Of a DNA stretch of 64,000 nucleotides, positions 3,037-59,319 are shown piece after piece. This DNA comes from Minisyncoccota bacterium. GTDB taxonomy: Bacteria; Patescibacteriota; Minisyncoccia; Phycocordibacterales; UBA9973. Location of the stretch: assembly GCA_035714785.1 (NCBI GenBank), contig DASTLQ010000008.1, positions 1,713 through 65,712 of the forward strand, read 5' to 3'. Position 1 is the stretch's first letter. Every line of letters begins with the position of its first letter. The position numbers and the translations under genes were made by a program. The notes beneath the pieces were generated by a model. That model was not told the origin of the DNA, searched no databases, and saw only the letters and a list, made by a program, of their open reading frames with translations.

Positions 3037-3107
3037 TCGGGGGTGGGGATTGAACCCACGACCTGAGGGTTATGATTCCTCCGCTCTGCCAACTGAGCTA
3101 CCCCGAC
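3037..3107 (-). tRNA. tRNA-Met/Ile2 (CAT anticodon)
   Basis: The reverse complement is GTCGGGGTAGCTCAGTTGGCAGAGCG..ATCATAA..GGTTCAATCC..CCCCGAC. Acceptor, D, anticodon (CAT) and T arms are all identifiable. Confidence 0.75.
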
Positions 3108-3784
3108 AAAATATTCTCTTTCATTGCCCTAATTAAACCTAGCATTTTATATTTTAAGTTCTTTCCTCTTCTTACCACTAACCTACATGTACCATAGTAA
3201 TTATCATAATTAGCGTATACCTTACTAACCTTAGTATTTACATAATAAGGCTTTCTTAATTGACTATTTTGTAAGTTTAGCAGTTTTTTCCAAAAACTCA
3301 AGACCACATTTATTCGTTCTTCATGAATCCTATTAATCTGAATTGAGCACACAATTTCTTCAGAAGGTATCTGTAAAACATCCACTAAAAATAATTTCAT
3401 AATCAAAATCATTTCTGGATCTGAATTCACAAATATAAAACCCGAAGTGCTATCACTTTTTGATCCTTCGCTCCAATATAAAGCTGTAGCAATTAATAAT
3501 AATTCTTTTTTTGAAATTTTTTCAACATGCTGTTTACCCCAGTCATTAGCATTATTAATGGCATCTCGTTTTTTCTTTCTATTTGATTCTGCTCCCATCC
3601 ATCTACCCATAACACTTCCTTTTTGTTTTTTTAATTTTTCTATTTGTTCAGAACTAAGTAATATATCCCTACACCAAAGACTTACAGCACTTTTAGAAAC
3701 CTCGAGGGCTTTTGCAATTACCACAATAGACATCCCATTTGCCCTCATCTTTCGTGCTTCTATTTTCTTGTCATATTTAGCCAT
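3098..3784 (-). CDS. HTH-domain protein with possible LAGLIDADG-like homing-endonuclease fold (free-standing); the 3' end overlaps the tRNA(CAT) gene by about 10 nt
   Basis: The N-terminus carries a resolvase/IS-type HTH (ANGMSIVVIAKALEVSKSAVSLWCRD). The segment LLLIATALYWSEGSKSDSTSGFIFVNSD resembles a LAGLIDADG helix followed by beta strands. The start is probably at MAKYDKK. The assignment is weak. Confidence 0.35.
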   Translation of the reverse strand: MAKYDKKIEARKMRANGMSIVVIAKALEVSKSAVSLWCRDILLSSEQIEKLKKQKGSVMGRWMGAESNRKKKRDAINNANDWGKQHVEKISKKELLLIATALYWSEGSKSDSTSGFIFVNSDPEMILIMKLFLVDVLQIPSEEIVCSIQINRIHEERINVVLSFWKKLLNLQNSQLRKPYYVNTKVSKVYANYDNYYGTCRLVVRRGKNLKYKMLGLIRAMKENILSG

Positions 3785-3859: not shown

Positions 3860-4166
3860 GCGGGGTAGAGAAGTGGTATCTCACAAGGCTCAAATATGGG
3901 CCCCCCAATGAGAAATCATTGAGAGTGCATTTGCCAAATTCGGGGAAATCCTCCCTTTTCTTATGAAAAGAAAGACAATCCCGAGCTAAATCCTATATTT
4001 TTTATAGGTAAATGTGTAGAGACTAGATGGTAAACTCCTGCCTTTTAGGAAGGAGATGGTATAGTCCAGACCACAAATTTATCTTTAGCCTTTGGCTAGA
4101 GAGGAGCAGCGAAAGCTGTAGTGGTAAGCATAACCTTGAGACAGCCGTTCGAATCGGCTCCCCGCA
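3860..4166 (+). tRNA. tRNA (CAT anticodon; Met or Ile2) interrupted by a 238-nt group I intron in the anticodon loop
   Basis: The 5' exon is GCGGGGTAGAGAAGTGGTATCTCACAAGGCT and the 3' exon is CATAACCTTG..AGCCGTTCGAATCGGCTCCCCGCA. Together they give acceptor, D, anticodon (CT|CATAA) and T arms. The exon ends in U and the intron ends in G. Confidence 0.55.
3891..4128 (+). other. Group I intron (no ORF) within tRNA(CAT)
   Basis: The sequence contains an R-like element (TGTAGAGACTAGATGG) and an S-like element (GATGGTATAGTCCAGACC). The 5' splice site follows U and the intron ends in G. Confidence 0.55.
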
Positions 4167-4928: not shown

Positions 4929-6386
4929 TTATTTTAAATCTTTTTCTAAGGGAAATAGTGAATAATCCTGGCCCGTAGGGGCGGTGAAAAGCATCCCGAA
5001 AGGTAGCCCTTCTTTAGAAAGACCAGACGGAATAGAGATAGACGGCAGGCCAGCGAGGTTTGCAGAAACTGTAAAAATATCGGAAAGGTACATTTCGACT
5101 GGATCTTTTTTCGCTCCAAATTTGAATGCGGGAGTAGGGGTGGTTGGTGTCATTACAAAATCTACTTCTTTAAAAATGCCATCGTATTCTTTCATGATAG
5201 CACGACGAACTTTCCATGCCTGATTATAGTAAGCGTCGTAATATCCGTGCGAGAGTACATATGTACCGAGCATCACTCTTCTGCGAGTTTCTTGGCCAAA
5301 GCCTAGGGCACGAGTTTTTTTATATGAGTCAGACACACTTTCCCCTTCTTCGCGAAGACCGTATCGAACTCCGTCCAACCGAGAAAGATTTGTAGAAACT
5401 TCTGCTGGCATGATTATATAGTACACGGCCAGAGAATACTTTGAATATGGGAGCGAAATATCTTTTATTTCATATCCTGCCTTTTTGAGCTTTTCTACGG
5501 AGTGCTCGAAATTTTGAAGCACTTCCGGATCTATTCCTTCTTTCAAGAAATCCCTTGGTATACCTATCCTTTTTAGGTGTAAGGGTAAGGGGTCCCCTTG
5601 CATGTTTGCGTGTAAGGGGTCCCCTTGCATGTTAAAGGGTCCGCCTTCGCTCTGCGAAGGTGGACCCTTAGATGTGCCATCCATTTCATCACGTCCCGCG
5701 ATGCATTCAAATACTATCCTTGCATCCTCAGAGGTTTTTGCCATCGGGCCGATTACGTCGAGCGATGAAGACATGGCAGTAAGACCGCTTCGGGAAACGG
5801 CTCCATAGGTAGGCTTCATTCCCACTACTCCGCAAAAACTAGCAGGCTGACGAATAGAACCACCCGTATCAGATCCAAGTGATGCGAGTGCCATTCCTCC
5901 TGCCACCGCAGCAGCCGAACCGCCCGAAGAACCGCCCGGTACTCTGGAGGGATCTAGCGGATTTCTCACTGGGCCATATGCAGAATTTTCGGTAGAAGAT
6001 CCCATGGCAAATTCGTCCATGTTTGTTCTACCGATTAGCACTGCTCCAGCTTCTTTCAATTTCTTTATCACGAAAGCATCATAGCTTGCTCGATAATTTT
6101 CAAGCATTTTTGAACCAGAGCTGTTTATTTTTCCATTCACTAAAATATTATCTTTCACTGCGATTGGAATTCCAGTGAGCGGTCCTCCTTCTCCCCTTTT
6201 TATTTTCTCATCCGCCTTTTTTGCTTCCTCTAGTGCACCTGCAAAAACTTCTAGAAAAATATTTAGCTCCTTGTTTTTTTCTTCTATGCGTGCGAGGCAT
6301 GCAGAAACTAAATCCACCGAGGTTATTTCTCCGGCTTGCATCATCTCTCCCGCTTTTTTAATTGTCAGTGAGTCTATGTCGATCAT
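4929..6386 (-). CDS. gatA: Glu-tRNA(Gln)/Asp-tRNA(Asn) amidotransferase subunit A, carrying an in-frame REP-derived insertion
   Basis: The amidase signature is present (GPLTGIPIAVKDNI, GGSSGGSAAAVA). A repeat at 5576-5670 is translated in frame as GPFNMQGDPLHANMQGDPLPLHL. Confidence 0.9.
   Translation of the reverse strand: MIDIDSLTIKKAGEMMQAGEITSVDLVSACLARIEEKNKELNIFLEVFAGALEEAKKADEKIKRGEGGPLTGIPIAVKDNILVNGKINSSGSKMLENYRASYDAFVIKKLKEAGAVLIGRTNMDEFAMGSSTENSAYGPVRNPLDPSRVPGGSSGGSAAAVAGGMALASLGSDTGGSIRQPASFCGVVGMKPTYGAVSRSGLTAMSSSLDVIGPMAKTSEDARIVFECIAGRDEMDGTSKGPPSQSEGGPFNMQGDPLHANMQGDPLPLHLKRIGIPRDFLKEGIDPEVLQNFEHSVEKLKKAGYEIKDISLPYSKYSLAVYYIIMPAEVSTNLSRLDGVRYGLREEGESVSDSYKKTRALGFGQETRRRVMLGTYVLSHGYYDAYYNQAWKVRRAIMKEYDGIFKEVDFVMTPTTPTPAFKFGAKKDPVEMYLSDIFTVSANLAGLPSISIPSGLSKEGLPFGMLFTAPTGQDYSLFPLEKDLK
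5576..5670. repeat. REP-like palindromic repeat cluster R1 (2 core units plus module-B palindrome) inside the gatA CDS
   Basis: GGTAAGGGGTCCCCTTGCATGTTTGCGTGTAAGGGGTCCCCTTGCATGTTAAAGGGTCCGCCTTCGCTCTGCGAAGGTGGACCCTT. Confidence 0.85.
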
Positions 6387-17062: not shown

Positions 17063-17422
17063 ACAATAATGAAATTGCGATATATATACTGTCGCTCCCG
17101 CCGTGGCGGACGCGTTATGATTTTCAAATTTCTTAACAGGAATCGAACAATTAGTACTTCTCAGCTCTACACATTACTGTGCTTACACTTAAAGCCTATC
17201 AACCTGATCATCTCTCAGGGTTCTTAACGATTCCTAATCTTGAAGCTGGCTTCCCTCTTAGATGCTTTCAGAGGTTATCCATTCCCGACATAGCTACCGA
17301 GCAATCCACTTGGCAGTAGAGCTCGTACACCAGAGGTCAGTTCACGCCGGTCCTCTCGTACTAAGCGCAAATCTTCTCAAGAATCAACGAGTGCAGTAGA
17401 TAGGAGACCAACCTGTCTCACG

Positions 17423-17748
17423 CATCTACGTCCATAATTACTTATGGGATTGGACTATAGCTTCATCTTTCTTCAGTTTTTACTTGAATAAGACTGCTGA
17501 CGTTTAGTCTCTACGGGTTCCGCCTACTGGCAGATTCCCTCGGTATTGCCCTCACTTTCGTGATCGGGTTTCACCGATACTAGTCAGCTTCACGTCACGC
17601 ATTTCTGTGTGACGCCGCCGTGATGTGCTAAAGCAAATGAATGCCATGCACGTGGTTGTTTTCGATTTATAACAGTCTAATTCGTTCTGAATTATTTTCC
17701 TCTGTAGGGTTCAGATCGTCAAAACCACAAGTTTGTCTTATGATCTCA
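17423..17748 (-). other. Group I intron (ORF-less) in 23S rRNA at the E. coli position ~2593 equivalent
   Basis: Exon junction GGGTTCAGACCGT|intron|CGTGAGACAGG. The intron follows U and ends in G. R-like (GTAGAGACTAAACG) and S-like (GAAGCTATAGTCC) elements are present. Confidence 0.65.
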
Positions 17749-18411
17749 ACGGTCTGAACCCAGCTCGCGTACCTTTTTAATTGGCGAACAGCCAAACGCT
17801 TGGGAGCTTCTCCACCCCCGCGCTAAGGTGAGCCGACATCGAGGTGCCGAACTCCGCCGTCGATATGAACTCTTAGGCGGAACTAGCCTGTTATCCCTAG
17901 AGTAGCTTTTATCCGTTAATCTAAACCCGCATCTAATGCGAAATTTCGGTTCACTTAGTTCTGGTTTCCCACCTGCTCGGGAAGTACCCCTTACAGTCAA
18001 GCCATCTTATGCCTATACACTATCGGCACGGTTTCCATTCGCGCCTAGATGACCTTTAAACCCCTCCTTTACTTTTTAGGAGGGTACAGCCCCAGTAAAA
18101 CTATCCACCAGATACTGTCTCAGTCCGTTTTTTCCGTACTGGTTAGAACATGCCTTCAAAAAGAATGGTATTTCACTGACGAGTAGATAACAGCCGAAAC
18201 CGCTAACATCAGACCTCTCCCATCTATTCTACGCAGTTTAAAAACATGCTCAATATCAAGTTATAGTAAAGCTTCTAGGGTCTTTTCGTCTAACTGCACT
18301 TAACCGGCATCTTCACCGGTATTGTATTTTCACCGAGCTGGTCCCCGAGACAGTTTCCCAGTCATTACACCATTCGTGCGCGTCGGAACTTACCCGACAA
18401 GGTATTTCGCT

Positions 18412-18625
18412 CTTCTATACCCAAGAAGGACTCTATCTTCATCCTCTCCGAAGAGGTGGGATGCTTGACGCTGGTCTCTCGTTAGCCAAGTTTTGACTGT
18501 CTCTACATTACTCTAGAGCAGGTAGCATTCGAATAGTCTAATAATTTTTTAATTTAATTGTTTACTTTTTTCTACAACAGTCCCAGTCATTCCGCGCTCG
18601 TCTGCCATAGGCAAACAAATGCAGA
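18412..18625 (-). other. Group I intron (ORF-less) in 23S rRNA at the E. coli position ~1917 equivalent
   Basis: Exon junction GGTCCTAAGGT|intron|AGCGAAATACCTTGTCGGGTAAG. The intron follows U and ends in G. R-like (TGTAGAGACAGTC) and S-like (GAAGATAGAGTCC) elements are present. Confidence 0.6.
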
Positions 18626-18660
<35 letters not shown>

Positions 18661-19394
18661 CAGGGCTTATATCAGTCTGCATATCTCCATCTTGCGACAA
18701 AGAAACACCGCCGATATTTGACCTTCTGGCATTGGTCAGGTGTCACCCCCTATACATCCTCTTACCGAGTTCGCAGGGAGCTGTGTTTTTGGTAAACAGT
18801 TGCCAGGAATACTTTCGCTGCGGCCGGCATTTCTGCCGGCAAGCCTTATCCCGAAGTTACGGCTGCTTTTTTGCCGAGTTCCTTGGGGACCTCTCACTCG
18901 TTCGTCTTGGTCTACTCGACCTGATCACCTGTGTCGGTTTGCGGTACGGATTCCATATTTTTAAGTTTAGAGATTTTTCTTGGAAGCGTGCTTTGCGAAA
19001 TTGCCCTCGGCCTAAACCGAAAACTTTTCACTTCTCTTGGATTCGCTATTTAAAGCAGCGCGCGGATTTTCCTACGCATCATCCTCAAGAAGCAAACTTA
19101 AATCCATTAATAAGCGACGCATACTACACTCCGTCCTCTCATCACAAAATATGGAAGTGCAGAAATATTAATCTGCTCTTCCATCGGGTGCGGATTTCTC
19201 CATCCCCTTAGGCCCGACTAACCCTTGGCTGATTATCATTACCAAGGAAACCTTGATCTTTCGACGTGATGCGTTCTCAGCATCATTGCGGTTACTTGTG
19301 CCAACATTCTTACTTCCACACGCTCCATAGGCCCTCACGGGTCCTACTTCACAGCAGAGTGGAACACTCTCCTACCACTCGTGAACTTCATAGA

Positions 19395-19705
19395 GGAGCC
19401 GATATTTTTTTATATCGGCTTTCAAACAATTTCGGGGTTCTCCGCAACATCAATCCACACGTTCAGAACACCATATTTAACGTATTGGAGAACCCAAAAG
19501 AACAAATCGTGCCCAGGAAGCGGGATTAAAACCCGACAAAGACCTTCGTCTTTGTATGCTTTGTTTTAACAAAAATTTTTTAAATTAGTTTTTATTTAAA
19601 CATCGCCTGATTGTTACTACTACCGGCTCAATATATCATACACGATATACCAGTACGTAACCCTCCTGGGCTGGCCACCCACCTTGGATGCGAAACTCTT
19701 CCTCT
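19395..19705 (-). other. About 310-nt insertion in 23S rRNA at the helix-45-equivalent region (IVS-like, bounded by a ~16-bp long-range stem)
   Basis: It lies between conserved CCGAA.. and GGTAGGAGAGTGTTC. The flanks GAATTTCATAGAGGA / TCCTCTATGAAGTTC can pair with each other. No group I signatures were seen. Confidence 0.4.
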
Positions 19706-20409
19706 ATGAAATTCACGAATCCTCACATTCGGTACTATGCTTAGCCCCAATTATTTTCGACGCAAAATCTCTGGATGAGTGAGCTGTTACGCTATCTTTA
19801 AAGGATGGCTGCTTCTAAGCCAACCTCCTCATTGTCAGAGAAATTTCACCTTCTTGTCTTGCACTTAGCATAGATTTAGGGACCTTATATTGAGATCCGG
19901 GCTGTTTCCCTTTTCACCAATGGAGCTTAGCCCCCACGGTGTAACTGCCGCATTCTGGCTTCTGGTATTCGGAGTTTGATAGGTTTCGCGAGATTGCTCC
20001 CTGTCGAAACCTTCCAGTGCTCTACCCCCAAAAGAAACATGCGACGCTAGCCCTAAAGCTATTTCGGAGAGAACCAGCTATTACCAGGTTCGATTAGCTT
20101 TTCACTCCTTACCACAAGTCATCCCAACGCGTTGTACGACGAACGGGTTCGGACCTCCATAAGTCTTTCGACCTACTTCATCCTGCTCATGGCAAGCTCA
20201 CCTGGCTTCGGGTCTTATGCATGATATATTTATTTCGCGCTATTAACACTCGGTTTCCCTACGGCTCTGCGGTTCTCCCGCTTAACCTACAACATGCATA
20301 AACTCGTTGGCTCATTCTTCAATAGGCACGCTGTCGCAGATATAAATACCTGCTCCAACTCCTTGTAGACATACGGTTTCAGGTCTATTTCACTGCCCTA
20401 ATCGGGCTT

Positions 20410-20446
<37 letters not shown>

Positions 20447-21202
20447 ATCTGTTAGAGTATTTAGCCTTAGCGGTTAGTTCCGCTGGATTCCCCCCGGCCA
20501 TTCGTGTCCTGGGGTACTCAAGAACGGCAATAAAAGAGATAAATTATTTTCGCTTACGGGCCTATCACCCTCTATGGAACCGCTTTCCAGCAGTTTCAGC
20601 TAATAATTTATTTTTTTACTCTTCTAGTAATCTACATTGCCGCCTTACAACCCCCAAATATTGCTACTTGGGTTTGGGCTCTTTCCTTTTCGCTCGCCGC
20701 TACTTAGGAAATAATTTTTATTCTCTTTTCCACCTGGTACTGAGATGTTTCACTTCCCAGGGTGCGCTCTCTGAATCAAGTTCAGAGTTATTGAGGTTTG
20801 CTCAATAGGGTTTCCCCATTCGGAGATCTCCGGATATATTGGTTGCTAGGCACCTCCCCGGAGCTTATCGCAGCTATGCCACGTCCTTCATCGCCTCTAA
20901 CAGTCTAGGCATCCACCGTACGCCCTTAATTTCCTGTTAAGAAATCTGAAAATCATAATTTTCATTTAGCTTTCTTTTCCGACCGCTCGGCATAAGAAAG
21001 CTGTTCTACCTACCGACATAAAGACCCCTTGGAAAGATTCATATCTTTACAAAAGAAATTGTCGTAGTAGCTTTAAGTTTTCAATCTTCAATCCGTTTCG
21101 GCAAACAAAAAACCGCCTTGTGGGCGGCTAAAAGAAAAAAACTTCTCTTTAGCGCCGCCTTTTGAGTTTCGTGTTTTTCGTTATTGTCATACTGATTGGG
21201 CT

Positions 21203-22767: not shown

Positions 22768-24480
22768 TTAATGCTGGTAAAATCCTCTAGCTTCTGAATC
22801 CGGTATAAGAATAAGTTTTACTTCCCTATTTTTACATAATTCGATTATTTTTTCATCATTTACTGACCCGCTCGTAGAAAAAATCGTCTTTATTCCTCGG
22901 TCTATTAATACTTCTGGAGCATCAGGAAATGGGAAGAAACTGTCGCTGTATGCCGTGGCTCCTGTGAGGTCGGCTGTTTGTGTGCCCTCCTGTGCGCTTT
23001 GGGCGCTTTGGGCGCTCTCTGCGCTTTGGGCCTCTCCCATACTTGCTCGAAATCCGGCTGACTCATCGGCGCGAGAGATTGCAAGCTTTGCCGCTCCCAC
23101 TCTGTCCTGCTGGCCGACTCCGTTTCCTAGTAGCTGTCCATCTTTTACTAGTGTAATGGTGTTGCTGTTTGAAGTACTACCTACTGCCCAAGCGAGCACT
23201 GCATCTTGGGGCAAGGCGTTTAGGGGTAAGGGGTCCCCTTGCATGTTTGCGTGTAAGGGGTCCCCTTGCATGTTATCCACAGGTACGAAGGTGTAGTTTG
23301 GTTGCTCTAAAAATCCACCTCGGACATATCGGAATCTTTTGGCTATATCGAGTGAGTCCTGCCCCGCCTTTTCAATCTTTGGATTTACTACCAAACGGCA
23401 CTTCCCCTTTTTGCGAGAAAGTATTTCGATTGCTTCTTCGCTAAAAGAAGGCGCGGCCACCATGTCGAGCAATCTCCTCCCCTCCGCTACATATTTATGA
23501 ATCAGGTCTTCTGCAATCTTTTCATCAACTGGAAAATTTACCATCACCATCCCGCCAAAGATTGCGCGTAAATCGCCAGTGAGCATTTTTTCCACTGCCA
23601 CTCCGCCATCAGCATCTGACACTCCTGCCCCACATGGATTTCCATGCTTTACTCCAATAGCCACAAACGGAACTTGCGAAAAGTTTTTTTCAAACCCCGC
23701 TCCGATATGGGTGACTGTCTGGATCATCCGATCAAGATCACATATATTGTTGTAGCTCATGGCACTGCCTCCGACCTGCTTCCAATTGTGCACCGCTAGT
23801 GCATCCTTGCTTCCTAGATTTTCAAAGAGAGCCGCCGGCTTCTGATATGCATTTTCCCCGTAAGCACATTCGTAGTTTCTTTTTCCAAAAATTGCTTTGT
23901 ATTCACCTCCACTATGATACTCTCCAGAAATGGAACAGTACCTTCCCACTACCGCTTCTGCCTTGGCAGAAAGTGCGTTTAGAAAATTTTCTTTCTCTGG
24001 TTCACCAGCTTGTAGCCATTCGATTACTCTTGGTCGATCGATAGGGTCGCAAATAGTGATCCTTCCTCCTTTGGCCGAAGCCCTGATCATGGTCGGTCCG
24101 CCAATGTCTGTTTTCTCTATCACTGATTCACGAGTGGCGTCCGGATTTGCAACCTCATCTTCTAAGGGATAGAAATCTACACACACCATATCGATGCGAG
24201 AGATTCCATATTTTTCCAAGTCCGCAATATGTTCCGGAGTATCGAGCGCTAAAAGTCCCCCGTGAATTTTTGGATGCAAGGTCGCTACTCGGTGTCCCAA
24301 TATTGCCGGCATGCCCGTGATCTCCTCAACGTCCGTCACCGCTATTCCATTTTCCGAAAGATATTTTGCCGTCCCTCCCGAAGAGATTATTTTCCAGCCC
24401 ATAGATACTAGGGCCTTGGCAAAATCTTCTAGACCATTTTTATTATAAACAGAAATGAGGGCCGTTTTTTGGTGTTGCAT
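22768..24480 (-). CDS. purH: Bifunctional AICAR transformylase/IMP cyclohydrolase, carrying an in-frame REP-derived insertion and a SAQ nonapeptide-repeat insertion
   Basis: The N-terminal MGS-like domain is MQHQKTALISVYNKNGLEDFAKAL. The C-terminus matches PurH (..SDSFFPFPDA..). Repeat R7 is translated as VDNMQGDPLHANMQGDPLPLNALP. The 9-bp tandem GCGCTTTGG x4 encodes SAESAQSAQSAQ. Confidence 0.9.
   Translation of the reverse strand: MQHQKTALISVYNKNGLEDFAKALVSMGWKIISSGGTAKYLSENGIAVTDVEEITGMPAILGHRVATLHPKIHGGLLALDTPEHIADLEKYGISRIDMVCVDFYPLEDEVANPDATRESVIEKTDIGGPTMIRASAKGGRITICDPIDRPRVIEWLQAGEPEKENFLNALSAKAEAVVGRYCSISGEYHSGGEYKAIFGKRNYECAYGENAYQKPAALFENLGSKDALAVHNWKQVGGSAMSYNNICDLDRMIQTVTHIGAGFEKNFSQVPFVAIGVKHGNPCGAGVSDADGGVAVEKMLTGDLRAIFGGMVMVNFPVDEKIAEDLIHKYVAEGRRLLDMVAAPSFSEEAIEILSRKKGKCRLVVNPKIEKAGQDSLDIAKRFRYVRGGFLEQPNYTFVPVDNMQGDPLHANMQGDPLPLNALPQDAVLAWAVGSTSNSNTITLVKDGQLLGNGVGQQDRVGAAKLAISRADESAGFRASMGEAQSAESAQSAQSAQEGTQTADLTGATAYSDSFFPFPDAPEVLIDRGIKTIFSTSGSVNDEKIIELCKNREVKLILIPDSEARGFYQH
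22990..23035. repeat. 9-bp tandem repeat (about 4.5 copies, GCGCTTTGG / GCGCTCTCT) inside purH
   Basis: The sequence is read directly. It is in frame and encodes an (SAQ)n-like stretch. Confidence 0.75.
23224..23283. repeat. REP-like repeat cluster R7 (2 core units plus DnaA-box 9-mer) inside the purH CDS
   Basis: GGTAAGGGGTCCCCTTGCATGTTTGCGTGTAAGGGGTCCCCTTGCATGTTATCCACAGG. This is the same two-unit variant, in the same strand and frame, as in gatA. Confidence 0.85.
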
Positions 24481-24617: not shown

Positions 24618-24983
24618 TTATTTCAATTCCACTTTCGCACCAGCTTCTTCGAGCTTCTTCTTTAGGTCTTCAGCTTCATCTTTCTTCATACCTTCTTTCA
24701 AGGTTACTGGAGCGCCGTCTACTAAATCTTTAGCTTCTTTCAATCCGAGTGCTAGGACTTCTTTTACTACCTTCATCACTCCGATCTTTTGTTCACCAGC
24801 CGAAGCAAGAACTACTGTAAAGGAATCCTTTTCCTCTGCGGCTGCAGCTCCTGCGGCAGGACCAGCGGCAGCAACTGCTGCTGCGGACACTCCAAACTTT
24901 TCTTCAATTTCTTTGACGAGGTCATTCAACTCCATAACAGAAGCTGATTCCAAGTCTTTCATAAATGCGTCGAATTTTGACAT
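24618..24983 (-). CDS. rplL: 50S ribosomal protein L7/L12
   Basis: The 121-aa ORF has an Ala-rich hinge and the C-terminal segment [27 protein letters not shown]. Confidence 0.9.
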
Positions 24984-25008
24984 ATTATTTTAAAATATAA
25001 ATTTATAA

Positions 25009-25491
25009 TTATTTTTTCTTGGCAACTTCGCCGACAGCGATAGCCAATCTCTGCATAGGAGATTTGAGCAAGAATGCAATCTTTGAGAGAAGTACTTCCC
25101 TGCTTGGGATAGTAGCAATCTCGGTCATCTTTTCTGCGTCCACAAACTTTCCTTCAAAAATCCCTCCGAGAATGCTGAGCAATCCGTTGTGACTTTTATG
25201 AAAAGCGTAAACTTCACGTGCGCTTGCGATCGGATCGTTAGAGTAGGCCAATGCCACTTCTCCTGTTAGGGGTGGAAGTTCTCCTTCGGCTTTTCCTTCG
25301 AGGGCTCTTCGCAAAAGGCTTTTGCGAGACACTTTGTATCCCACTTCCTTTTCTCGAAGATCTCGGCGAAGCACAGTCTCGTCGGTCACATTTAATCCGT
25401 GGAAATCCACGAACACTACGGACTTTGAGCTATCGATAGCCTCCCCCAATCCTTTTACTATTTCTTCTTTTTTTGATCTTAATAATGCCAT
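25009..25491 (-). CDS. rplJ: 50S ribosomal protein L10
   Basis: It matches L10 along its full length. The start is taken as MALLRSKKEEIV. The longer ORF 5' extension is unlikely to be real. Confidence 0.85.
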   Translation of the reverse strand: MALLRSKKEEIVKGLGEAIDSSKSVVFVDFHGLNVTDETVLRRDLREKEVGYKVSRKSLLRRALEGKAEGELPPLTGEVALAYSNDPIASAREVYAFHKSHNGLLSILGGIFEGKFVDAEKMTEIATIPSREVLLSKIAFLLKSPMQRLAIAVGEVAKKK

Positions 25492-25826
25492 ATGTATTTT
25501 TTCGCTTTTGCGAATTTTAAACAAAAAAACGGCTCAATGCTAATAAGAGCCGCAAGTGCCGATTTCATGCTCCGCCTTTGGGCAGAAAACGAAAACGGGT
25601 ATCGACCACTCTACAGGACTTATGGATGCCTGTCGTCTTTGCGGTACCTCTACTATATCATAATATCCTTATTCTGCAAACCATTCTACTACCTCTTTTG
25701 CTCGAGGGTCTGCTCCTTCCATCCCACTTATCCAATACAATCCTAATAGGGCTAATAGAATCATAGCCGTAAATAGAAGGACGGTTTTGAAGAAATGCTT
25801 GGTGAGCATGAGTATATAATACCATA

Positions 25827-29393: not shown

Positions 29394-29480
29394 CTGTGGA
29401 TAACATGTAAGGGGTCCCCTTACACGCAACATGCAAGGGGACCCCTTACCCCTTGCCGACCCTTACCCTTACCCTTGGCC
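29394..29480. repeat. REP-like repeat cluster R8 (2 core units, DnaA-box 9-mer, CCCTTACC tail) at the 3' flank of the RAYT gene
   Basis: CTGTGGATAACATGTAAGGGGTCCCCTTACACGCAACATGCAAGGGGACCCCTTACCCCTTGCC. Confidence 0.85.
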
Positions 29481-30161
29481 CTCGCCCAAACCCTCATGTG
29501 TATTAAACAAAAGCCATTCTTTTATAAAATCATTAAAGTCATCGACTTTTTCAAAATATTCCGGAAAAGCTCCTTTGTTAATAATTTCTTCTTCTTGATA
29601 ATTTTTCTGCTGGTAAATTAAATAGCTAGAATTTTGATAACTATTTAAATATCTCTCTGTCCTACGAATATCACTAATTCCGCTCTCTTTCCACTCTGGG
29701 TCAATTATTTTTACCGGATTTAAATGAATATAAGCAAATAAATATTTTAAGTATGTATCCGTGTTAACATGCTTCGCTTTAAATGCCCTCTCAAATACTG
29801 GCCCAGTCCTTTTGTGTTTTTTATTAAAATACATCGAATAGCCAGTAAGGAGCTTTAGCATAAATTGAGTTACTCCTCCTGGAATCTTTTCTTTTACTAA
29901 AATATGAAAGTGATTAGGCATGAGACAATATGCCCCTATGTCGACAAGTGTTCTTTTTCTGCGCACGAAAAATAGGTCAGAGAAAGTACGGCCGTTTTTG
30001 AAATGCCGAGCTATGTCTACAGAGTCTGAACTATTACACACATAGAGCAGAGCCTTAAATCTCAAATAATCCTTGGAATCGAGAAAAATCTCGTGCTTAT
30101 CCGTACCACGGTTGTATAAATGATAATATTCGTTGATAGAAAAATTGATCTTCCGCTCCAT
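29469..30161 (-). CDS. REP-associated tyrosine transposase (RAYT; IS200/IS605-like Y1 HUH transposase family)
   Basis: An HUH motif (CLMPNHFHILV) and a C-terminal catalytic-Tyr motif (YLFAYIHLNPVK) are present, and the N-terminus (YHLYNRGTDKHEIF) matches the Y1 family pattern. REP clusters lie immediately on both flanks. Confidence 0.7.
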   Translation of the reverse strand: MERKINFSINEYYHLYNRGTDKHEIFLDSKDYLRFKALLYVCNSSDSVDIARHFKNGRTFSDLFFVRRKRTLVDIGAYCLMPNHFHILVKEKIPGGVTQFMLKLLTGYSMYFNKKHKRTGPVFERAFKAKHVNTDTYLKYLFAYIHLNPVKIIDPEWKESGISDIRRTERYLNSYQNSSYLIYQQKNYQEEEIINKGAFPEYFEKVDDFNDFIKEWLLFNTHEGLGEGQG

Positions 30162-30224: not shown

Positions 30225-30313
30225 GGTCCCCTCCACCTGTGGATAACATGCAAGGGGTCCCCTTACACTTTATCCACACCCTGTGGATAACATGCAAGGG
30301 GTCCCCTTACACC
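30225..30313. repeat. REP-like repeat cluster R9 (2 core units, 3 DnaA-box 9-mers) at the 5' flank of the RAYT gene
   Basis: GGTCCCCTCCACCTGTGGATAACATGCAAGGGGTCCCCTTACACTTTATCCACACCCTGTGGATAACATGCAAGGGGTCCCCTTACACC. Confidence 0.85.
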
Positions 30314-43401: not shown

Positions 43402-44595
43402 TTAACCCAATATTTTTGTAACCACTCCTGCACCCACAGTCTTACCTCCTTCACGGATAGCAAATTTCTGTTGTTCTTCAAGAGCGATAGGTGTAACCAA
43501 TTTTACAGTGATGCTCACAGTATCTCCTGGCATAACCATTTCGGTTCCTTCTGCCAAAGTAACATCTCCAGTCACGTCAGTAGTTCGGATGTAGAACTGA
43601 GGCTTGTAACCTTTAAAGAATGGAGTGTGACGTCCACCTTCTTCCTTTTTCAAAACGTAAATTTCAGCTGTGAAATTGTCGTGTGGAGTAACAGTTCCTG
43701 GCTTTACCAAAACCTGTCCACGAGTGATGTCTTCTTTCTTAAGACCTCGCAATAGGACTCCGGCGTTGTCTCCAGCCATACCTTCCTGAAGATTTTTGTT
43801 GAACATTTCGATACCAGTAACAGTAGTCTTTTGATTTGCTTTAATACCAACGATTTCGATTTCTTCACCAACCTTTACGATTCCTCTTTCAATCTTTCCT
43901 GTAACAACAGTTCCTCGTCCTTCGATTGAAAAGATGTCTTCTACTGGCATTAGGAATGGCTTGGTAACATCTCTTTCTGGAACTGGGATGTAAGTATCAA
44001 GTGCGTCTGTAAGTTCCAATACTTTCTTTGACCATTCATCATTTACATCTTGAGATTCAAGAGCCTTAAGAGCGGAACCTCGGATAACTGGAGCATTTGC
44101 GCCGTCAAAGCCTTGTTTTGTAAGGAGTTCACGGATTTCTTCTTCAACCATGTCTAGCATATCCTTGTCATCCACCATGTCGCATTTGTTCATGAAAACG
44201 ATGATTCGAGGCACTCCAACTTGGCGAGCCAAGAGAACGTGTTCACGAGTCTGTGGCATAGCACCGTCAGTTGCAGCAACCACCAAAATAGCACCGTCCA
44301 TTTGAGCGGCACCGGTGATCATGTTTTTAATATAGTCGGCGTGTCCCGGAGCATCGATGTGCGCGTAGTGACGTGCATCGGTAGCGTACTCGTTGTGGGA
44401 GATGTTAATGGTGATTCCACGGGCCTTTTCTTCTGGAGCGTTGTCGATCTGACTAACGTCCTTTAGGCGCACAGTCTTTCCTGCCATCTGGAGCACATGA
44501 AGGATAGCAGCAGTAAGGGTAGTCTTTCCATGGTCAACGTGACCGATGGTACCTACGTTTACGTGCGGCTTGTCTCTTTTAAATTCTTCTGCCAT
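43402..44595 (-). CDS. tuf: Elongation factor Tu
   Basis: [22 protein letters not shown]. Confidence 0.95.
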
Positions 44596-44800
44596 ATGAT
44601 TTTTTTGGCTAATAGCTCTAACTTAACGTACGAGAACCAGTCGCTAAGGCGGAGTTACTAACGCTTAATTAAACTAATAATTTATAATTAAAATCTACTT
44701 ATTTTGTCATTTATTGCCTCTTTTTTTAAAATTAGCAACAAAAAAACCGCGAAAGTGCAGTTGCATCTATATTAACAGATTGCAAATTATTGTCAACATG

Positions 44801-44861
44801 GGTGTAAGGGGTCCCCTTGCATGTTATCCACAGGTTTAGGTGTAAGGGGTCCCCTTACACC
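44801..44861. repeat. REP-like repeat cluster R11 (2 core units plus DnaA-box 9-mer) upstream of tuf
   Basis: GGTGTAAGGGGTCCCCTTGCATGTTATCCACAGGTTTAGGTGTAAGGGGTCCCCTTACACC. Confidence 0.85.
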
Positions 44862-44888
44862 TAAGTTTGCGTGCATTTTAAATCTAAC

Positions 44889-45215
44889 CTATTGCTGGTT
44901 ATTTTCTTCTGAGACTTTCAGGAGAACTCTGGCTAATCTTTCGCTATCTACTTCTTTACCACCATATTGATCATTTTTATAGAGTTCTTCATTCAAGAAA
45001 TTCTTCTGTATTTTTTTAAAAGTATTCAGGAAGCCTAAATTCTCTATACGCTTCATAACTTCAGCATAAGGTAATTCTGACATGCGGTAGCCGGACAAAT
45101 TGTCACTATTTAATGTTGAATCAAGAAAAAGGGGACCTATTTTTCTAAATATTTTTAATTCTTCTGGTGAATACATGACATCTTCCCCCTGATTGAAATT
45201 TGGTTTATTTTCCAT
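44889..45215 (-). CDS. Hypothetical protein (inserted between fusA and tuf)
   Basis: 108-aa ORF with no recognisable motifs. Confidence 0.4.
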   Translation of the reverse strand: MENKPNFNQGEDVMYSPEELKIFRKIGPLFLDSTLNSDNLSGYRMSELPYAEVMKRIENLGFLNTFKKIQKNFLNEELYKNDQYGGKEVDSERLARVLLKVSEENNQQ

Positions 45216-45234
45216 TTGTTTTTATATTTAAATC

Positions 45235-45753
45235 TTATAATCCGCTGTTTTTAGACTGACGAGCTCGTTCAACTAATTCGTCTCTCATTTTCTCAGCATC
45301 TACTGCTGAAAGTCCTTTTAGTCTACCTTCCGACCCCATTCCTCTCATCCCGCGTCCGCCCATCATCCCCCCTCCTGCTGTCTGAATTTGTAAATCCGAA
45401 AGCCCTAGGAGGCGATCGATTATTCCCCTGTAAATATCCACGTTTTGAATTCGGTCATACGGAATGGTCACGTATTTTTTATAAATGACTCCCGATTCTT
45501 TCTTAAAACCATTTTCTGCTAGTTCATATCGATAATACTTATATGTAAGTCTTGCCCAAACATAGGAGACACCCACGACAAATAAGATATAAATGATTAA
45601 CGCTACTGTTAATGGTCCCCATGATACCTGTTGAGGTTCTTCAGTAATCCAAAAAGAAGATAAAATAGCGCCCAGAATCCAAATAATAAAAATAAATCTA
45701 GGAATAAATGCTAAGACGAACAGCCATAATGCTTTTGGGTCAAGATGTTTCAT
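45235..45753 (-). CDS. Bacterial PH-domain (bPH_2/YdbS-like) membrane protein
   Basis: Two N-terminal TM helices and a C-terminal domain (..YDRIQNVDIYRGIIDRLLGLSDLQIQTAGG..). The start is trimmed to MKHLDPK, because the 5' extension reads through repeat R12. Confidence 0.5.
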   Translation of the reverse strand: MKHLDPKALWLFVLAFIPRFIFIIWILGAILSSFWITEEPQQVSWGPLTVALIIYILFVVGVSYVWARLTYKYYRYELAENGFKKESGVIYKKYVTIPYDRIQNVDIYRGIIDRLLGLSDLQIQTAGGGMMGGRGMRGMGSEGRLKGLSAVDAEKMRDELVERARQSKNSGL

Positions 45754-45770
45754 AATTTGATTATACTCCA

Positions 45771-45820
45771 CCTGTGGATAACATGTAAGGGGTCCCCTTG
45801 CATGTTCCCCTTGCATGTTA
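45771..45820. repeat. REP-like repeat R12 (1.5 core units plus DnaA-box 9-mer) abutting the fusA stop
   Basis: CCTGTGGATAACATGTAAGGGGTCCCCTTGCATGTTCCCCTTGCATGTTA. Confidence 0.8.
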
Positions 45821-47968
45821 CTTGCGGGTGGCGATGATAGTTTCGGCTACGTTTTGAGGCACGATGTCGTAGCGAATGAATTCCATAGTGAAAGATGCAC
45901 GACCTTCAGTCATGGATCGTAGGCTGGTCATGTATCCGAACATTTCAGAAAGAGGAACTACGGCATTTACTACTTTGTTCATTCCGCGGTCTTCCATTCC
46001 TTCGATCAATCCTCGTTTTGAAGACAGATTACCTGTCACGTCTCCCATGAATTTATCTGGAGTGACAACTTCTACTTTCATCATAGGTTCCAAGATCACT
46101 GGAGTAGCTCGTCGGCAAGCATCTTGTACAGCCATAGAAGCGGCGATTTTGAAAGCCATTTCGTTTGAGTCCACTTCGTGATAAGAACCGTCCCATAGGT
46201 CTACTGATACGTTTACCATTTTGAATCCTGCCAAGATACCTCGGTCTAGTCCTTCTTTAAATCCTTTTTCACAAGCAGGGATATATTCCTGAGGGATCAC
46301 TCCTCCTTTGATGTTGTTGATGAATTCAAATCCTTCACTTCTCTTTGTATTCTTTGGAAGATCTGACACTTCTTCTTTTGTAAGAGCTTGCATTGGCTTG
46401 ATCTTGATCTTCACATGACCGTAGTTACCGCGACCTCCAGACTGCTTGATGTATTTTCCTTCAGCCTCAGAATTGTTGGTGATAGTTTCTCGATACGCAA
46501 CCTGTGGTTTTCCGACATTTGCTTCAACAGAAAATTCTCGCTTCATGCGGTCAACGATGATTTCTAGGTGAAGCTCTCCCATTCCTGAGATGATAGTCTC
46601 CCCTGCTTCGTTGTCGCTTGAAACTTTAAAGGTAGGATCTTCTTGGGCAAGACGGTTTAGGGCCATTCCCATTTTTTCTTGGTCTGCCTTAGTTTTTGGT
46701 TCGATTCGAAGAGAGATCACTGGTTCAGGGAACACGATCTTATCAAGCTCGATAGGACTATTTTCATCACATAGAGTGTCGGAAGTAATGGTGTCTTTCA
46801 ATCCCACCGCAGCTGCAATTTCTCCAGCAAATACTTTCTTTACTTCTTCTCGGTCGTTTGCATGCATACGTAAGATTCGGCCGATACGTTCTTTGTTTCG
46901 AGTACGAGGATTGTAAACATAAGATCCTGCACTCAGTGTTCCTGAATATACTCGGAAGAAAATAAGCTGTCCGACGAATGGATCAGTAGCCACCTTGAAA
47001 GCAAGAGCGGAAAAAGGTTCGCTATCATCTGCATGTCGAGCAATTTTAACTTCATCGTTTCCAGGATCAGTTCCTTCAATAGCGGGAATATCTAGAGGAG
47101 ATGGAAGATAATCTACCACTCCGTCAAGCACTAACTGAACTCCTTTATTTTTTAGAGCAGTACCTGCATATACTGGGAAAACTTCATTGTTGATTACTCC
47201 TTTTCTCAAAAGCTTCTTTAAAGTTTCTGCATCAGGAATCTTTCCTTCCAAGTATTCACCCATCACTGTATCGTCTTGCTCAACGATTTTTTCGACAAGC
47301 TCATGGTGATACTTTTGGGCTTCTGCTTTTAGTTCTTCTGGAATTTCTTTTTCAACAACCTGACTTCCCATTTCTCCTTCAAAGTAGAATGCCTTCATTT
47401 TCAAAAGGTCCACTACACCTTCGTGCTTTTCTTCCAAGCCGATAGGAATCTGCATGCGAACTGCTTTCTTTGTCAGACGATCCAAAATAGTTGCAAATGA
47501 GCGTTCAAAAGAAGCACCGGTGCGATCAAGTTTATTGATGAAACAAATACGAGGCACTTTTGCTTCGTCGGCATAGCGCCAGTTGGTTTCAGACTGAGGC
47601 TCTACTCCTGCCACTCCGTCGAAAACTACTACAGCTCCGTCGAGTACGCGAAGTGATCGCTTTACTTCTACTGTAAAGTCGATGTGTCCAGGGGTGTCGA
47701 TGATATTAAAACGATGTTTTTTGTTTTTGTCAGCAAGAGCATAGGTTGGAGTCCAGAAACAAGTAACAGCAGCAGAGGTAATAGTAATACCTCTCTCTCT
47801 TTCCTGTTCCATCCAGTCGGTCACAGTCTCCCCTTCATGCACTTCTCCGATCTTATGAGAAACTCCGGTATAAAAAAGCACCCGCTCAGTAGTGGTGGTT
47901 TTTCCTGCGTCGATATGCGCAATAATTCCTATATTCCTTACTTTTTCTAAAGGATAATCTCTTTCCAT
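45818..47968 (-). CDS. fusA: Elongation factor G
   Basis: 716-aa ORF with a GTPase domain ([12 protein letters not shown]) and the EF-G domains II-V. Confidence 0.95.
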
Positions 47969-47978
47969 ATTATTTTAA

Positions 47979-48449
47979 TTACCAGCCGAAGTGGGCAAAA
48001 GCCTTGTTTGATTCGGCCATTTTATGAGTATCGTCTTTCTTTTTAATAGCTGCACCTTCATTCTTGGAAGCGGCAATCAATTCATCAGCGAGTTTCTGAT
48101 GCATTGGTTTTCCCTTTCCTCCTCGAGCAGCATCACGAATCCAACGCATTGCTAGCGCTAGTCGTCGCTCTGGTCGAACTTCACGAGGAACCTGATAGTT
48201 TGCTCCTCCGATTCTCTTGGAGCGAACTTCAGTGATGGGACCTGCGTTCTTCATTGCAAGATCAAAAACTTCCAGCGGATTTGGGTTCCCGGTCTTTTCT
48301 TTTATTATTTCAAAGGCATCGTAAACTACGCTTCTAGCGGTTTCCTTTTTTCCAGACCACATGACGTAGTTGATAAACTTCTCCAATTTCTGAGAATTGT
48401 AAATGAAGTCAGGTGGGGTTACTTTTTTGTTTTTTATTGATCGTCGCAT
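47979..48449 (-). CDS. rpsG: 30S ribosomal protein S7
   Basis: 156-aa ORF. Confidence 0.9.
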   Translation of the reverse strand: MRRSIKNKKVTPPDFIYNSQKLEKFINYVMWSGKKETARSVVYDAFEIIKEKTGNPNPLEVFDLAMKNAGPITEVRSKRIGGANYQVPREVRPERRLALAMRWIRDAARGGKGKPMHQKLADELIAASKNEGAAIKKKDDTHKMAESNKAFAHFGW

Positions 48450-48465
48450 GTATTTCTATTCAAAA

Positions 48466-48882
48466 TTATTTTCCTTTCGGCTTCTTGTTTCCATAAAGGG
48501 ATCGGGATTGTCGGCGCTTTTCTACTCCCTGAGTATCCAAAACTCCACGAACGATATGGTATCGAACTCCGATAAGGTCTTTAACACGTCCTCCTCGAAG
48601 CATTACCACGGAGTGTTCCTGTAGATTGTGTCCTTCTCCTGGGATATATGCGGTCACTTCCATGCCATTAGTCAAACGCACTCTCGCAATCTTTCGGAGA
48701 GCTGAGTTTGGTTTCTTTGGAGTAGTGGTGGTGACTTTAGTGCAAACTCCTCTCTTAAATGGAGATGGGTAAAATACTGGCTTGTTTTTTAGGAAGTTGA
48801 ATCCACGTTCAAGAGCCACAGTCTTTGGTTTGCGGCTTACTTTCTTTCTTTTCTTCTTGATTAATTGGTTTACTGTAGGCAT
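48466..48882 (-). CDS. rpsL: 30S ribosomal protein S12
   Basis: [20 protein letters not shown]. Confidence 0.95.
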
Positions 48883-58051: not shown

Positions 58052-58105
58052 AGGGTAAGGGGACCCCTTACCCTGTGGATAACATGCAAGGGGACCCCTT
58101 ACACC
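58052..58105. repeat. REP-like repeat cluster R15 (2 core units plus DnaA-box 9-mer) abutting the rplK stop
   Basis: CAGGGTAAGGGGACCCCTTACCCTGTGGATAACATGCAAGGGGACCCCTTACACC. Confidence 0.85.
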
Positions 58106-58530
58106 TAGTCTTTTACGTCGATTCCCATAGAGCGGGCAGAGCCTGCTACGATGCGGATAGCGCCTTCGATATCTTTTGCGTTTAGATCTGGCATTTTCTT
58201 TTCTGCGATTGCCTGTGCCTGTGCTTTAGTGATTTTTCCAGCCTTGCTGACAGTGTTTTTACCTGATCCCTTTTCGATTCCAGCAGCTTTCAAAATAAGT
58301 CCTGATACTGGAGGAGTCTTAACGACAAAATCGTAGCTTCGGTCTTCGTATACGGAAACATTTACAGATACTGTGTCGCCCATCATCTTAGAAGTGGCAG
58401 CGTTAAACTTGGTGACAAAGTCTCCGATATTGATTCCTGCCTGTCCAAGTGCTGGTCCAAGAGGAGGAGCTGGAGTAGCCTTTCCTGCTGGAATCTGAAG
58501 CTTTATTTTTTTTGTTACTTTTTTAGCCAT
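58105..58530 (-). CDS. rplK: 50S ribosomal protein L11
   Basis: [34 protein letters not shown]. Confidence 0.9.
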
Positions 58531-58581
58531 ATTTTTATATTTCTTTACTTAAAGCGCCCATGTCTCAACTGACAGATTACC

Positions 58582-59127
58582 CTATGTTCTCTTAACTTGC
58601 AAGAAGTCTAATTCTACTGGGGTTTCTCGGCCGAACATTGATACTAATACTTTTACCTTGCCTCTTTCTTGATCTACTGCATCCACTTTTCCTTCTAAAT
58701 CTCTAAATGGACCGTCAGTGATGCGTACCATTTCTCCGATTGCAAGATCAATATTGTGCTTTGCTGGTTCTCCATCCATTTTCTTAAACAGAAAATCAAC
58801 TTCGTCTTTTCGAAGGGGCACAGGATTTATTCCAGCTCCTACGAACCCAGTGACGCGTGGAGTGTTGCGCACTACGTACCATGAATCATCCGTCACTATC
58901 ATATCCACCAATACGTATCCGGGATATATTTTTTCTTCGACTTCTACCCTCTTTCCTCCTTTTACTTTTATTTTCTTTTCTACCGGTACTACTACATTAA
59001 AAATTTTCTCGTGCATCATCAGAGAGTCTATGCGCTGCTTCAAATTGCGCAGAACGACATTTTCGTATCCTGCGTAAGTATGAATGGCGTACCAATTTCT
59101 TGTACCTTGGTTTTCTTGCTTTGACAT
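58582..59127 (-). CDS. nusG: Transcription termination/antitermination factor NusG
   Basis: An NGN domain (NWYAIHTYAGYENVV) and a KOW domain (GEMVRITDGPFRDLEGKV) are present. The start is trimmed to MSKQENQ. Confidence 0.85.
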   Translation of the reverse strand: MSKQENQGTRNWYAIHTYAGYENVVLRNLKQRIDSLMMHEKIFNVVVPVEKKIKVKGGKRVEVEEKIYPGYVLVDMIVTDDSWYVVRNTPRVTGFVGAGINPVPLRKDEVDFLFKKMDGEPAKHNIDLAIGEMVRITDGPFRDLEGKVDAVDQERGKVKVLVSMFGRETPVELDFLQVKRT

Positions 59128-59140
59128 ATTATTTTTATTG

Positions 59141-59319
59141 TTAGAACAATAGCTCCAATGCTCGGAGGAAGATGAAGTCAAAGAGTCCGAGGAAATAAGC
59201 CACGAGGATGGAAAGAACAATAACGATAACAGTGTAATGCACTGTTTGCATCTTGCCTGGCCATACTACATGCCTCAATTCTCCTTTTATTTCTTTGAAA
59301 TATTCGGTTACTTTTGCCA
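59141..59319 (-). CDS. secE: Protein translocase subunit SecE (59 aa, below the ORF-track cutoff)
   Basis: The manual translation is MAKVTEYFKEIKGELRHVVWPGKMQTVHYTVIVIVLSILVAYFLGLFDFIFLRALELLF. It has a single TM helix and lies upstream of nusG. Confidence 0.55.

Follow-up and report, generated by a model that had tools for sequence, protein, structure and literature searches.

In Escherichia coli and Bacillus the classical str operon has the gene order rpsL-rpsG-fusA-tufA. The question raised here is how fusA and tuf came to stand apart in a 64-kb stretch of a Candidatus Paceibacterota (Parcubacteria/Nomurabacteria-like) metagenome-assembled genome, where two unrelated genes and several repetitive extragenic palindromic (REP) sequences lie between them. 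The whole 64-kb stretch, which is all that was seen of this genome, is called the window below. An initial annotation of the locus suggested a REP-associated insertion or rearrangement inside a highly conserved operon. The explanation we favor, and regard as probable, is a variable slot between fusA and tuf in which genes and REPs have arrived independently of each other, with tuf transcribed from a promoter of its own.

The order rpsL (48466–48882), rpsG (47979–48449), fusA (45818–47968; EF-G, 716 aa; Pfam GTP_EFTU, EFG_III, EFG_IV, and EFG_C) and tuf (43402–44595; EF-Tu, 397 aa; Pfam GTP_EFTU, D2, and D3) is kept on the minus strand according to the open reading frame (ORF) map and Pfam, and the locus resembles the classical operon in both gene order and strand. 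It differs from it in the 1.2 kb that separates fusA from tuf (85 bp to more than 6 kb across the clade), in the predicted, clade-specific structured leader carried by tuf, and in the joining of tuf to the S10 block, as rpsJ follows 20 bp after tuf and is succeeded by rplC and the rest of that block. The fusA stop and the tuf start are 1,222 bp apart on the ORF map (44596–45817), and two genes intervene where the str operon would have fusA and tuf adjacent. Read along the minus strand, fusA is followed by a single REP unit (45771–45817; a 9-mer, a hairpin, and a half-copy), a gene for a 172-aa bPH_2 (YdbS-like) membrane protein (45235–45753, minus strand; Pfam PF03703), orf108 (44889–45215, minus strand; 108 aa, no Pfam or NCBIfam match), a REPIN-like REP doublet (44801–44866; two hairpins with TTATCCACA between them), a TTGACA-N16-TAATAT site, and tuf. 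The spacer genes (HEU0085603.1 and HEU0085604.1 at NCBI, from a contig of 83.7 kb) are only 19 bp apart, with no REP between them. Both the two-gene segment of about 1.2 kb and the REP clusters at its two borders are present where the initial annotation had placed them.

Whether such a gap is exceptional was judged against 80 species-representative Paceibacterota genomes, fetched with EF-G as probe and sharing 62–89% EF-G identity (L numbers below denote the fusA loci of related genomes). A tuf gene on the same strand within 6 kb downstream of fusA was found in 52 of the 80, at distances of 85–5802 bp (median 813 bp), and only 8 of these 52 have a spacing below 300 bp. Ten further genomes have no tuf inside the 6 kb downstream of fusA. 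The ORFs in the gaps are nearly all mutually unrelated (106 of 126 are singletons). The spacing varies widely across the 52 relatives, hardly any of the contents recur, and the ancestral state in this clade is not one of contiguity. The premise that fusA is normally followed directly by tuf fails among the relatives, and a two-gene gap of 1.2 kb is squarely typical for the clade. A full-text literature search found no report on fusA-tuf synteny in Patescibacteria.

The contents of the slot in some of the nearest relatives deserve a remark of their own. Here pyrimidine-biosynthesis genes are found: L001 (5949–9961) has pyrC-pyrD-pyrE-pyrF together with a receiver-domain protein (response regulator), and a pyrD-like gene occupies the slot in L088 (6463–7527), L091 (911–1714), and L094 (580–1050). 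None of these slot pyr genes occurs in the 64-kb window, and their absence suggests a stepwise loss of the pathway from the fusA-tuf slot.

The gene nearest to tuf, orf108, is the first key to the history of the junction. A word-indexed homology search returned only the query itself, tblastn of orf108 and the bPH_2 gene against the 80 fusA loci placed neither at any junction, and a profile search with the orf108 family alignment against the six-frame ORFs of all loci gave no additional members. An exhaustive HMMER search of 1.84 billion representatives recovered eight distant relatives (91–156 aa, 32–47% identity) sharing the motif STLNSENLGxY...EVMKRL...LG...ERLARI. All homologs with a readable context lie directly 3′ of fusA, in five other genomes (L088/L089, L090, L091, L094, and L095) whose EF-G is 88–95% identical to that of the window, and they begin 18–100 bp past fusA. 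The gene orders are fusA-orf119-pyrD-p215-tuf in L088/L089, fusA-orf105-orf79-tuf in L090, fusA-orf-pyrD in both L091 and L094, and fusA-orf106-orf66 in L095, and no REPs were found at any of these loci. Homologs thus already follow fusA in five relatives without REPs, which means that REPs did not bring orf108 in. From this comparison of sequences orf108 is an old resident of the fusA-tuf slot, and the position of its family is bound to the 3′ flank of fusA.

The orf108 family is fast-evolving, with approximately 35–45% identity where tuf is 90–96% identical, and orf108 itself is AT-rich (32.7% GC, z = -2.6). The protein is predicted to be soluble and all-helical, and its AlphaFold2 model (predicted local distance difference test score 82) had no recognizable fold match. 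PADLOC and PHROGs gave no defense or phage assignment for either orf108 or the bPH_2 gene. In distant Parcubacteria (L065, L068–L072, L075, and L077; EF-G 62–65%) another small family of 69–136 aa recurs right after fusA, for example at approximately 8125–8535 in L070. It is unrelated in sequence to orf108 and has a weakly Phd/YefM-antitoxin-like N-terminus (E = 4e-4, under the Pfam cutoff).

The bPH_2 gene has a different distribution. Its Pfam assignment is firm (PF03703, E = 4.9e-15, 56 bits against a cutoff of 22). The 193-aa ORF (45235–45816) over-extends into the REP sequence, and the true start is most likely M22, which gives the 172-aa protein at 45235–45753, because this is NCBI's own call and gives 100% coverage against homologs of 172–177 aa. 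Hydropathy indicates two hydrophobic segments (residues ∼8–35 and 45–68), followed by the bacterial PH domain. In its two N-terminal transmembrane helices, PH domain, and Pfam score well over threshold the protein is like the YdbS/YdbT-type proteins, which in Bacillus are linked to antimicrobial-peptide resistance. Unlike those systems, the window gene has no adjoining YdbT-like partner and belongs to a CPR-wide (Candidate Phyla Radiation) orthologous group of about 175 aa. Among 1315 homologs the best non-self match has 60% identity, and orthologs with 54–60% identity are found elsewhere in unrelated neighborhoods: beside rpiB-rpe-tkt in two Nomurabacteria-like genomes, ligA in another, and recG in yet another.

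Junction contents were examined in 57 genomes besides that of the window, and bPH_2 was at the fusA/tuf junction in none of them. The most parsimonious reading of this distribution is that bPH_2 is the sole newcomer gene at the junction, through a single gain in the window lineage. Its composition is native (39.5% GC, z = -0.6), which suggests that it was relocated within the genome; a recent horizontal acquisition was considered and is not indicated, as the composition is not foreign. No upstream or downstream sequence is common to the window and the flanks of the bPH_2 orthologs, and hence no relocation scar was found. One could instead suppose that the sub-clade ancestrally had the order fusA-bPH_2-orf108-tuf and that the relatives lost bPH_2, since the slot gains and loses genes freely and the gene looks native. 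This we consider very improbable given the absence from all 57 genomes, the orf108 homologs that start so soon after fusA in the five genomes, and the housing of bPH_2 orthologs elsewhere, among them the two next to rpiB-rpe-tkt. The initial annotation's notion of a lineage-specific insertion therefore stands for bPH_2 and for the REPs, and falls for orf108. Its own check, that the same genes lying in relatives without REPs would speak against insertion, turns out in the same divided way: orf108 is found so, bPH_2 is not. A cassette delivered as a unit would have both genes missing from the site in relatives, and only bPH_2 is new.

The region upstream of tuf can be aligned with REP-free relatives. 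The predicted promoter reads TTGACA (44796–44791), a 16-nt spacer, and TG-n-TAATAT with the -10 hexamer at 44774–44769 on the minus strand, and scores 10 of 12. Promoter-like sites are in general not enriched in the region (12 against 11.5 expected), and for that reason the case for the tuf promoter rests on its conservation in relatives. From the -35 element to the tuf ATG the sequence aligns with L088, L090, L001, L002, and L004, all REP-free, and more loosely with L003, L005, and L024. The conserved blocks are TTGACA, a TGnTAnTAT extended -10, a small hairpin with a T-run, and a 55-nt stem-loop. Of 42 relatives, 26 have a TTGACW-N15–18-TANNWT site in the 260 bp preceding tuf, where about 2% is estimated by chance. 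The suggestion that the site beside the left REP is tuf's own promoter is borne out by its conservation where REPs are lacking, and as judged from these alignments the promoter is ancestral and older than both the REPs and bPH_2. In E. coli tufA and in the Bacillus fus-tuf spacer, too, additional promoter activity for tuf is known.

Between this promoter and the tuf start codon lies a predicted leader of 170 nt on the minus strand. At the start of the predicted transcript is a 5′-end hairpin (AACUGCAC...GCGGUU) with a T-run (44735–44762, minus strand), a terminator-like match whose six pairs are kept in six genomes with one UA/UG change. The 55-nt stem-loop (44608–44662, minus strand) has the loop motif ACUGGUUCUCGUA, and its end lies approximately 12 nt short of the tuf ATG. 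Of its 19 pairs, 11 show compensatory changes, and pairing is kept in 93.6% of the alignment cells; none of 500 shuffles was as good, and slid controls gave 2–4 compensatory pairs. A covariance model of the stem-loop has matches in the window and in 10 relatives, in every case directly upstream of tuf and nowhere else. Copies in relatives lie at L088:8364–8435, L001:10066–10137, L002:8638–8709, L004:8031–8103, and L090:1521–1589, and others were found in L003, L005, L024, and L012. Rfam gave no match for it. This clade-specific leader may be autoregulatory for the tuf-S10 unit.

The REP sequences at the two borders belong to a family spread over the window. The core AAGGGGWCCCCTT has 58 strand-matches at 28–30 sites in the 64 kb (0.10 in shuffled sequence), and each unit consists of a 23–25-nt palindrome (CATGYAAGGGGWCCCCTTRCATG or GGTGTAAGGGGWCCCCTTACACC), exactly 5 nt, and then TTATCCACA(GG). 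The predicted folds range from -20.8 to -46 kcal/mol (z = -2.7 to -7.3). Thirteen inverted doublets with a spacing of 26–56 bp fold into long hairpins, while four cores are unpaired. Sixteen REP clusters were counted in the window, 14 of them intergenic and two in frame within gatA and purH. About 14 of about 38 intergenic spacers of at least 50 bp hold REPs. REPs are absent from the packed ribosomal block (33–44.6 kb) and from the inside of rpsL-rpsG-fusA, and they thereby mark the spaces between transcription units.

A candidate for the mobilizing enzyme is encoded 15 kb from the junction, by a gene of low GC content (34.6%) for a 230-aa protein (29469–30161, minus strand) with REP doublets on both sides (29395–29447 and 30238–30308). 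The protein matches Pfam Y1_Tnp (31.3 bits against a cutoff of 23), and its only NCBIfam match is NF047646, REP-associated tyrosine transposase (RAYT; E = 3.2e-11, 43.3 bits). It carries the HUH motif NHFHILV and the tyrosine (YxxxNP) motif YIHLNPV, and a sequence search against the PDB returned no homolog. On this evidence it is a probable mobilizing enzyme of the REP family. A RAYT-like gene with REPs on both sides is the signature REP-RAYT arrangement, and together with the over-represented palindromes and the doublets it upholds the label REP that the initial annotation had used.

Like the REPs of E. coli (TnpA-REP/YafM) and the REPINs of Pseudomonas fluorescens, those described here are over-represented, mostly extragenic short imperfect palindromes, with inverted doublets that form one long hairpin, a conserved non-palindromic flank by the hairpin, and a Y1/HUH transposase gene flanked by its own repeats. 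They differ from the known systems in their patescibacterial (CPR) host, in the flank TTATCCACAGG, which is the DnaA-box consensus and not GTAG, in the two doublets in frame within genes, and in a 230-aa transposase that scores under the equivalog cutoff and whose activity is predicted only. The family looks genome-specific by sequence. No REP core was found in 91 related loci, the unit with its DnaA-box flank had zero matches in the JGI metagenome collection, and Rfam held no family for it, giving only spurious miRNA-hairpin matches. Looser palindrome matches (at least 120 in the JGI metagenomes and two in IMG/VR) were considered as possible relatives and rejected: each stands alone with no DnaA box linked to it, their frequency is approximately that of chance for a 16-base pattern, and several are an unrelated repeat. 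A full-text search of the literature found no report of a REP-RAYT system from Patescibacteria.

At the junction the left cluster consists of a hairpin (44801–44823), TTATCCACA (44824–44832), and a second hairpin (44839–44861). The doublet folds at -46.2 kcal/mol on the plus strand (z = -7.3) and -33 kcal/mol on the minus strand (z = -4.4), and relative to L088 and L090 the alignment has it as an insertion just upstream of the tuf -35 element. The right cluster is made up of the DnaA-box-like TGTGGATAA (45773–45781), a hairpin (45782–45804), and a 13-nt duplicated half-copy (45805–45817), with a sense-strand fold of -20.8 kcal/mol (z = -2.7). It abuts the native fusA stop codon (45818–45820, minus strand), which has been kept. 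Compared with L088, L090, and L091 the 3′ end of fusA is conserved through the stop codon, and beyond it REP and bPH_2 are extra material of the window; the right REP unit is missing at the matching position in all three. A promoter-like CTTACA-N18-TATAAT (45789→45760) overlaps this unit, 6 nt upstream of the bPH_2 ATG.

These details bear on the idea that bPH_2 alone was relocated, by recombination at the REP abutting the fusA stop, which would make that REP the cause of the move and not a later arrival. The unit does stand exactly at the fusA/bPH_2 boundary with its odd half-duplication, and it supplies the -35-like part of the promoter-like site of bPH_2. Half-copies are present at other REP sites as well, however, and the other boundary, the 19 bp between bPH_2 and orf108, has no REP, so that we hold this route to be unlikely.

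Repeats at both joins also invite the suspicion that fusA, the bPH_2-orf108 block, and tuf were misjoined during assembly. In an independent Logan assembly (SRR10492801) a 967-bp contig is 100% identical to 44833–45799 and confirms the linkage of bPH_2 and orf108. Both joins cross repeats that recur about 30 times, and the Logan assembly breaks within the REP cores. Still, a chimera is extremely improbable because ordinary reads are longer than the REP clusters (47–66 bp) and because the position matches the orf108 synteny of five other independent assemblies; in L090 the block also reaches tuf.

There remains the reading closest to the initial annotation, in which REP recombination or RAYT activity inserted a two-gene cassette into a contiguous fusA-tuf operon and left the REPs as scars. 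The block has a REP cluster at each end and none inside, the independent assembly gives exactly the REP-to-REP block as one contig, a RAYT-like transposase is encoded in the window, and REPs do insert at new sites, even in gatA and purH. We nevertheless judge the cassette quite unlikely. There was no ancestral contiguity to break in this clade, orf108 homologs already follow fusA in the five relatives that lack REPs, the left doublet is a clean insertion beside an ancestral promoter, and RAYTs mobilize REP or REPIN sequences and not flanking genes. Moreover, with REPs in about a third of the sizeable spacers double bracketing is to be expected fairly often, and for this reason the bracketing is no evidence of gene delivery. 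REP-associated delivery of the segment is thus not upheld, also given the lack of a REP between bPH_2 and orf108. The arrangement is ordinary for the lineage, and its bracketing by REPs is a side effect of the invasion of the whole genome by these repeats.

Returning to the variable slot that we favor, the fusA/tuf junction would be a boundary between two transcription units and not the inside of a tight operon, and as such a long-standing, tolerant slot. The tuf and S10 genes would be driven by their own sigma-70-type promoter and structured leader. Because tuf expression would then be independent of read-through, upstream cargo would leave tuf undisturbed and the slot could tolerate gain and loss. 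The resident orf108 would probably be transcribed as the tail of rpsL-rpsG-fusA. In the window lineage only, bPH_2 would have moved in between fusA and orf108, and the REP/REPIN family, mobilized by the RAYT-type transposase, would have separately colonized both free spacers. Being 19 bp apart, bPH_2 and orf108 are probably co-transcribed, either by read-through past the REP hairpin after fusA or from the CTTACA-N18-TATAAT site that is partly made by the REP; we infer both routes from the layout of the locus. REPs of E. coli act as stabilizers of mRNA 3′ ends or as partial terminators. By analogy, the hairpins here may stabilize upstream mRNA 3′ ends or attenuate read-through and so insulate the units.

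Several points weigh against this explanation. The available relatives come no closer than about 90% EF-G identity, which is too distant to order the arrivals of bPH_2 and the REPs. The joins to fusA and tuf run through repeats, and it is exactly at these joins that the independent k=31 assembly is interrupted. On the sense strand no U-run comes after either REP cluster, which means that they are not canonical intrinsic terminators. The RAYT-like protein, at 43.3 bits, falls under the NCBIfam equivalog cutoff of 80, and by this score it is a divergent relative and not a certified equivalog. Where the operons begin and end, whether the tuf promoter is used, and whether the REPs serve as terminators or stabilizers are predicted from the sequence, and we likewise infer how, and in which direction, bPH_2 moved. 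A source locus for bPH_2 may lie outside the 64 kb over which the genome is visible.

The two REP doublets within genes are of separate interest. One (5587–5626) lies in frame inside an intact gatA (4929–6386, minus strand), and an identical one (23228–23267) lies in frame inside an intact purH (22768–24480, minus strand), both encoding NMQGDPLHANMQGDPLPL. In GatA this peptide is an insertion of about 14 aa relative to the solved Aquifex GatA (3h0l), and in PurH it is located in a variable linker and accounts for only about four extra residues. The Rickettsia palindromic elements similarly form in-frame palindromes within intact housekeeping genes and add a repeat-encoded peptide. The present repeats differ from them in being far shorter, with units of about 25 bp and 50-bp doublets, and in having a mostly intergenic location, and a candidate transposase, and there is no sequence relationship.

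Other ribosomal clusters regarded as conserved are broken in the window too. The pair nusG-rplK (58105–59220) is followed by a dCMP deaminase gene and not by rplA-rplJ-rplL; rplJ-rplL (24618–25524) lies at a distance of 33 kb, and rplA was not seen. REP doublets edge these broken ribosomal fragments (58057/58088 and 59393/59437). The 23S rRNA gene (17132–20939, minus strand) is 3.8 kb long, with at least one group I intron in it (17431–17640). A second group I intron-like match (3881–4088, plus strand) lies outside any rRNA and adjoins two tRNA genes and the ORF with the lowest GC content of the window (3098–3784, no Pfam match).

The flank of the REP unit raises one further possibility. The 9-mer TTATCCACA is a perfect DnaA-box consensus and occurs 24 times in the 64 kb; 23 of the 24 are REP-linked, exactly 5 nt from the hairpin (for example 44824–44832, 45773–45781, 6703/6727, 10167/10191, and 30238–30290). 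The boxes are usually paired and face each other within a doublet. Neither dnaA nor dnaN was seen in the window, the relatives have neither REPs nor such boxes, and a full-text literature search found no report of REPs with DnaA boxes. That the REP elements seed DnaA-binding sites genome-wide is a speculative proposal with little probability in our view, as is the companion idea that the orf108 family and the tuf leader could be unrecognized translation-linked regulators. Were the box density to hold throughout the genome, there would be several hundred DnaA boxes per Mb. Should DnaA bind them, a RAYT-mobilized selfish element would be placing initiator sites across a minimal genome, also beside the tuf and bPH_2 promoters. 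Such sites could titrate DnaA or put neighboring promoters under DnaA control, and DnaA-driven melting could extrude the hairpin needed by the transposase.

In Paceibacterota fusA and tuf are as a rule separated by a gap, which is therefore not to be flagged as an anomaly in genome scans; operon junctions held to be "universally conserved" are not conserved in Patescibacteria. The locus further defines a new, covarying candidate leader RNA of tuf and a small protein family linked to fusA. The window as a whole offers a clean example of a predicted REP-RAYT system in a CPR genome, with in-frame insertions in essential genes and a repeat unit that bears a DnaA box.

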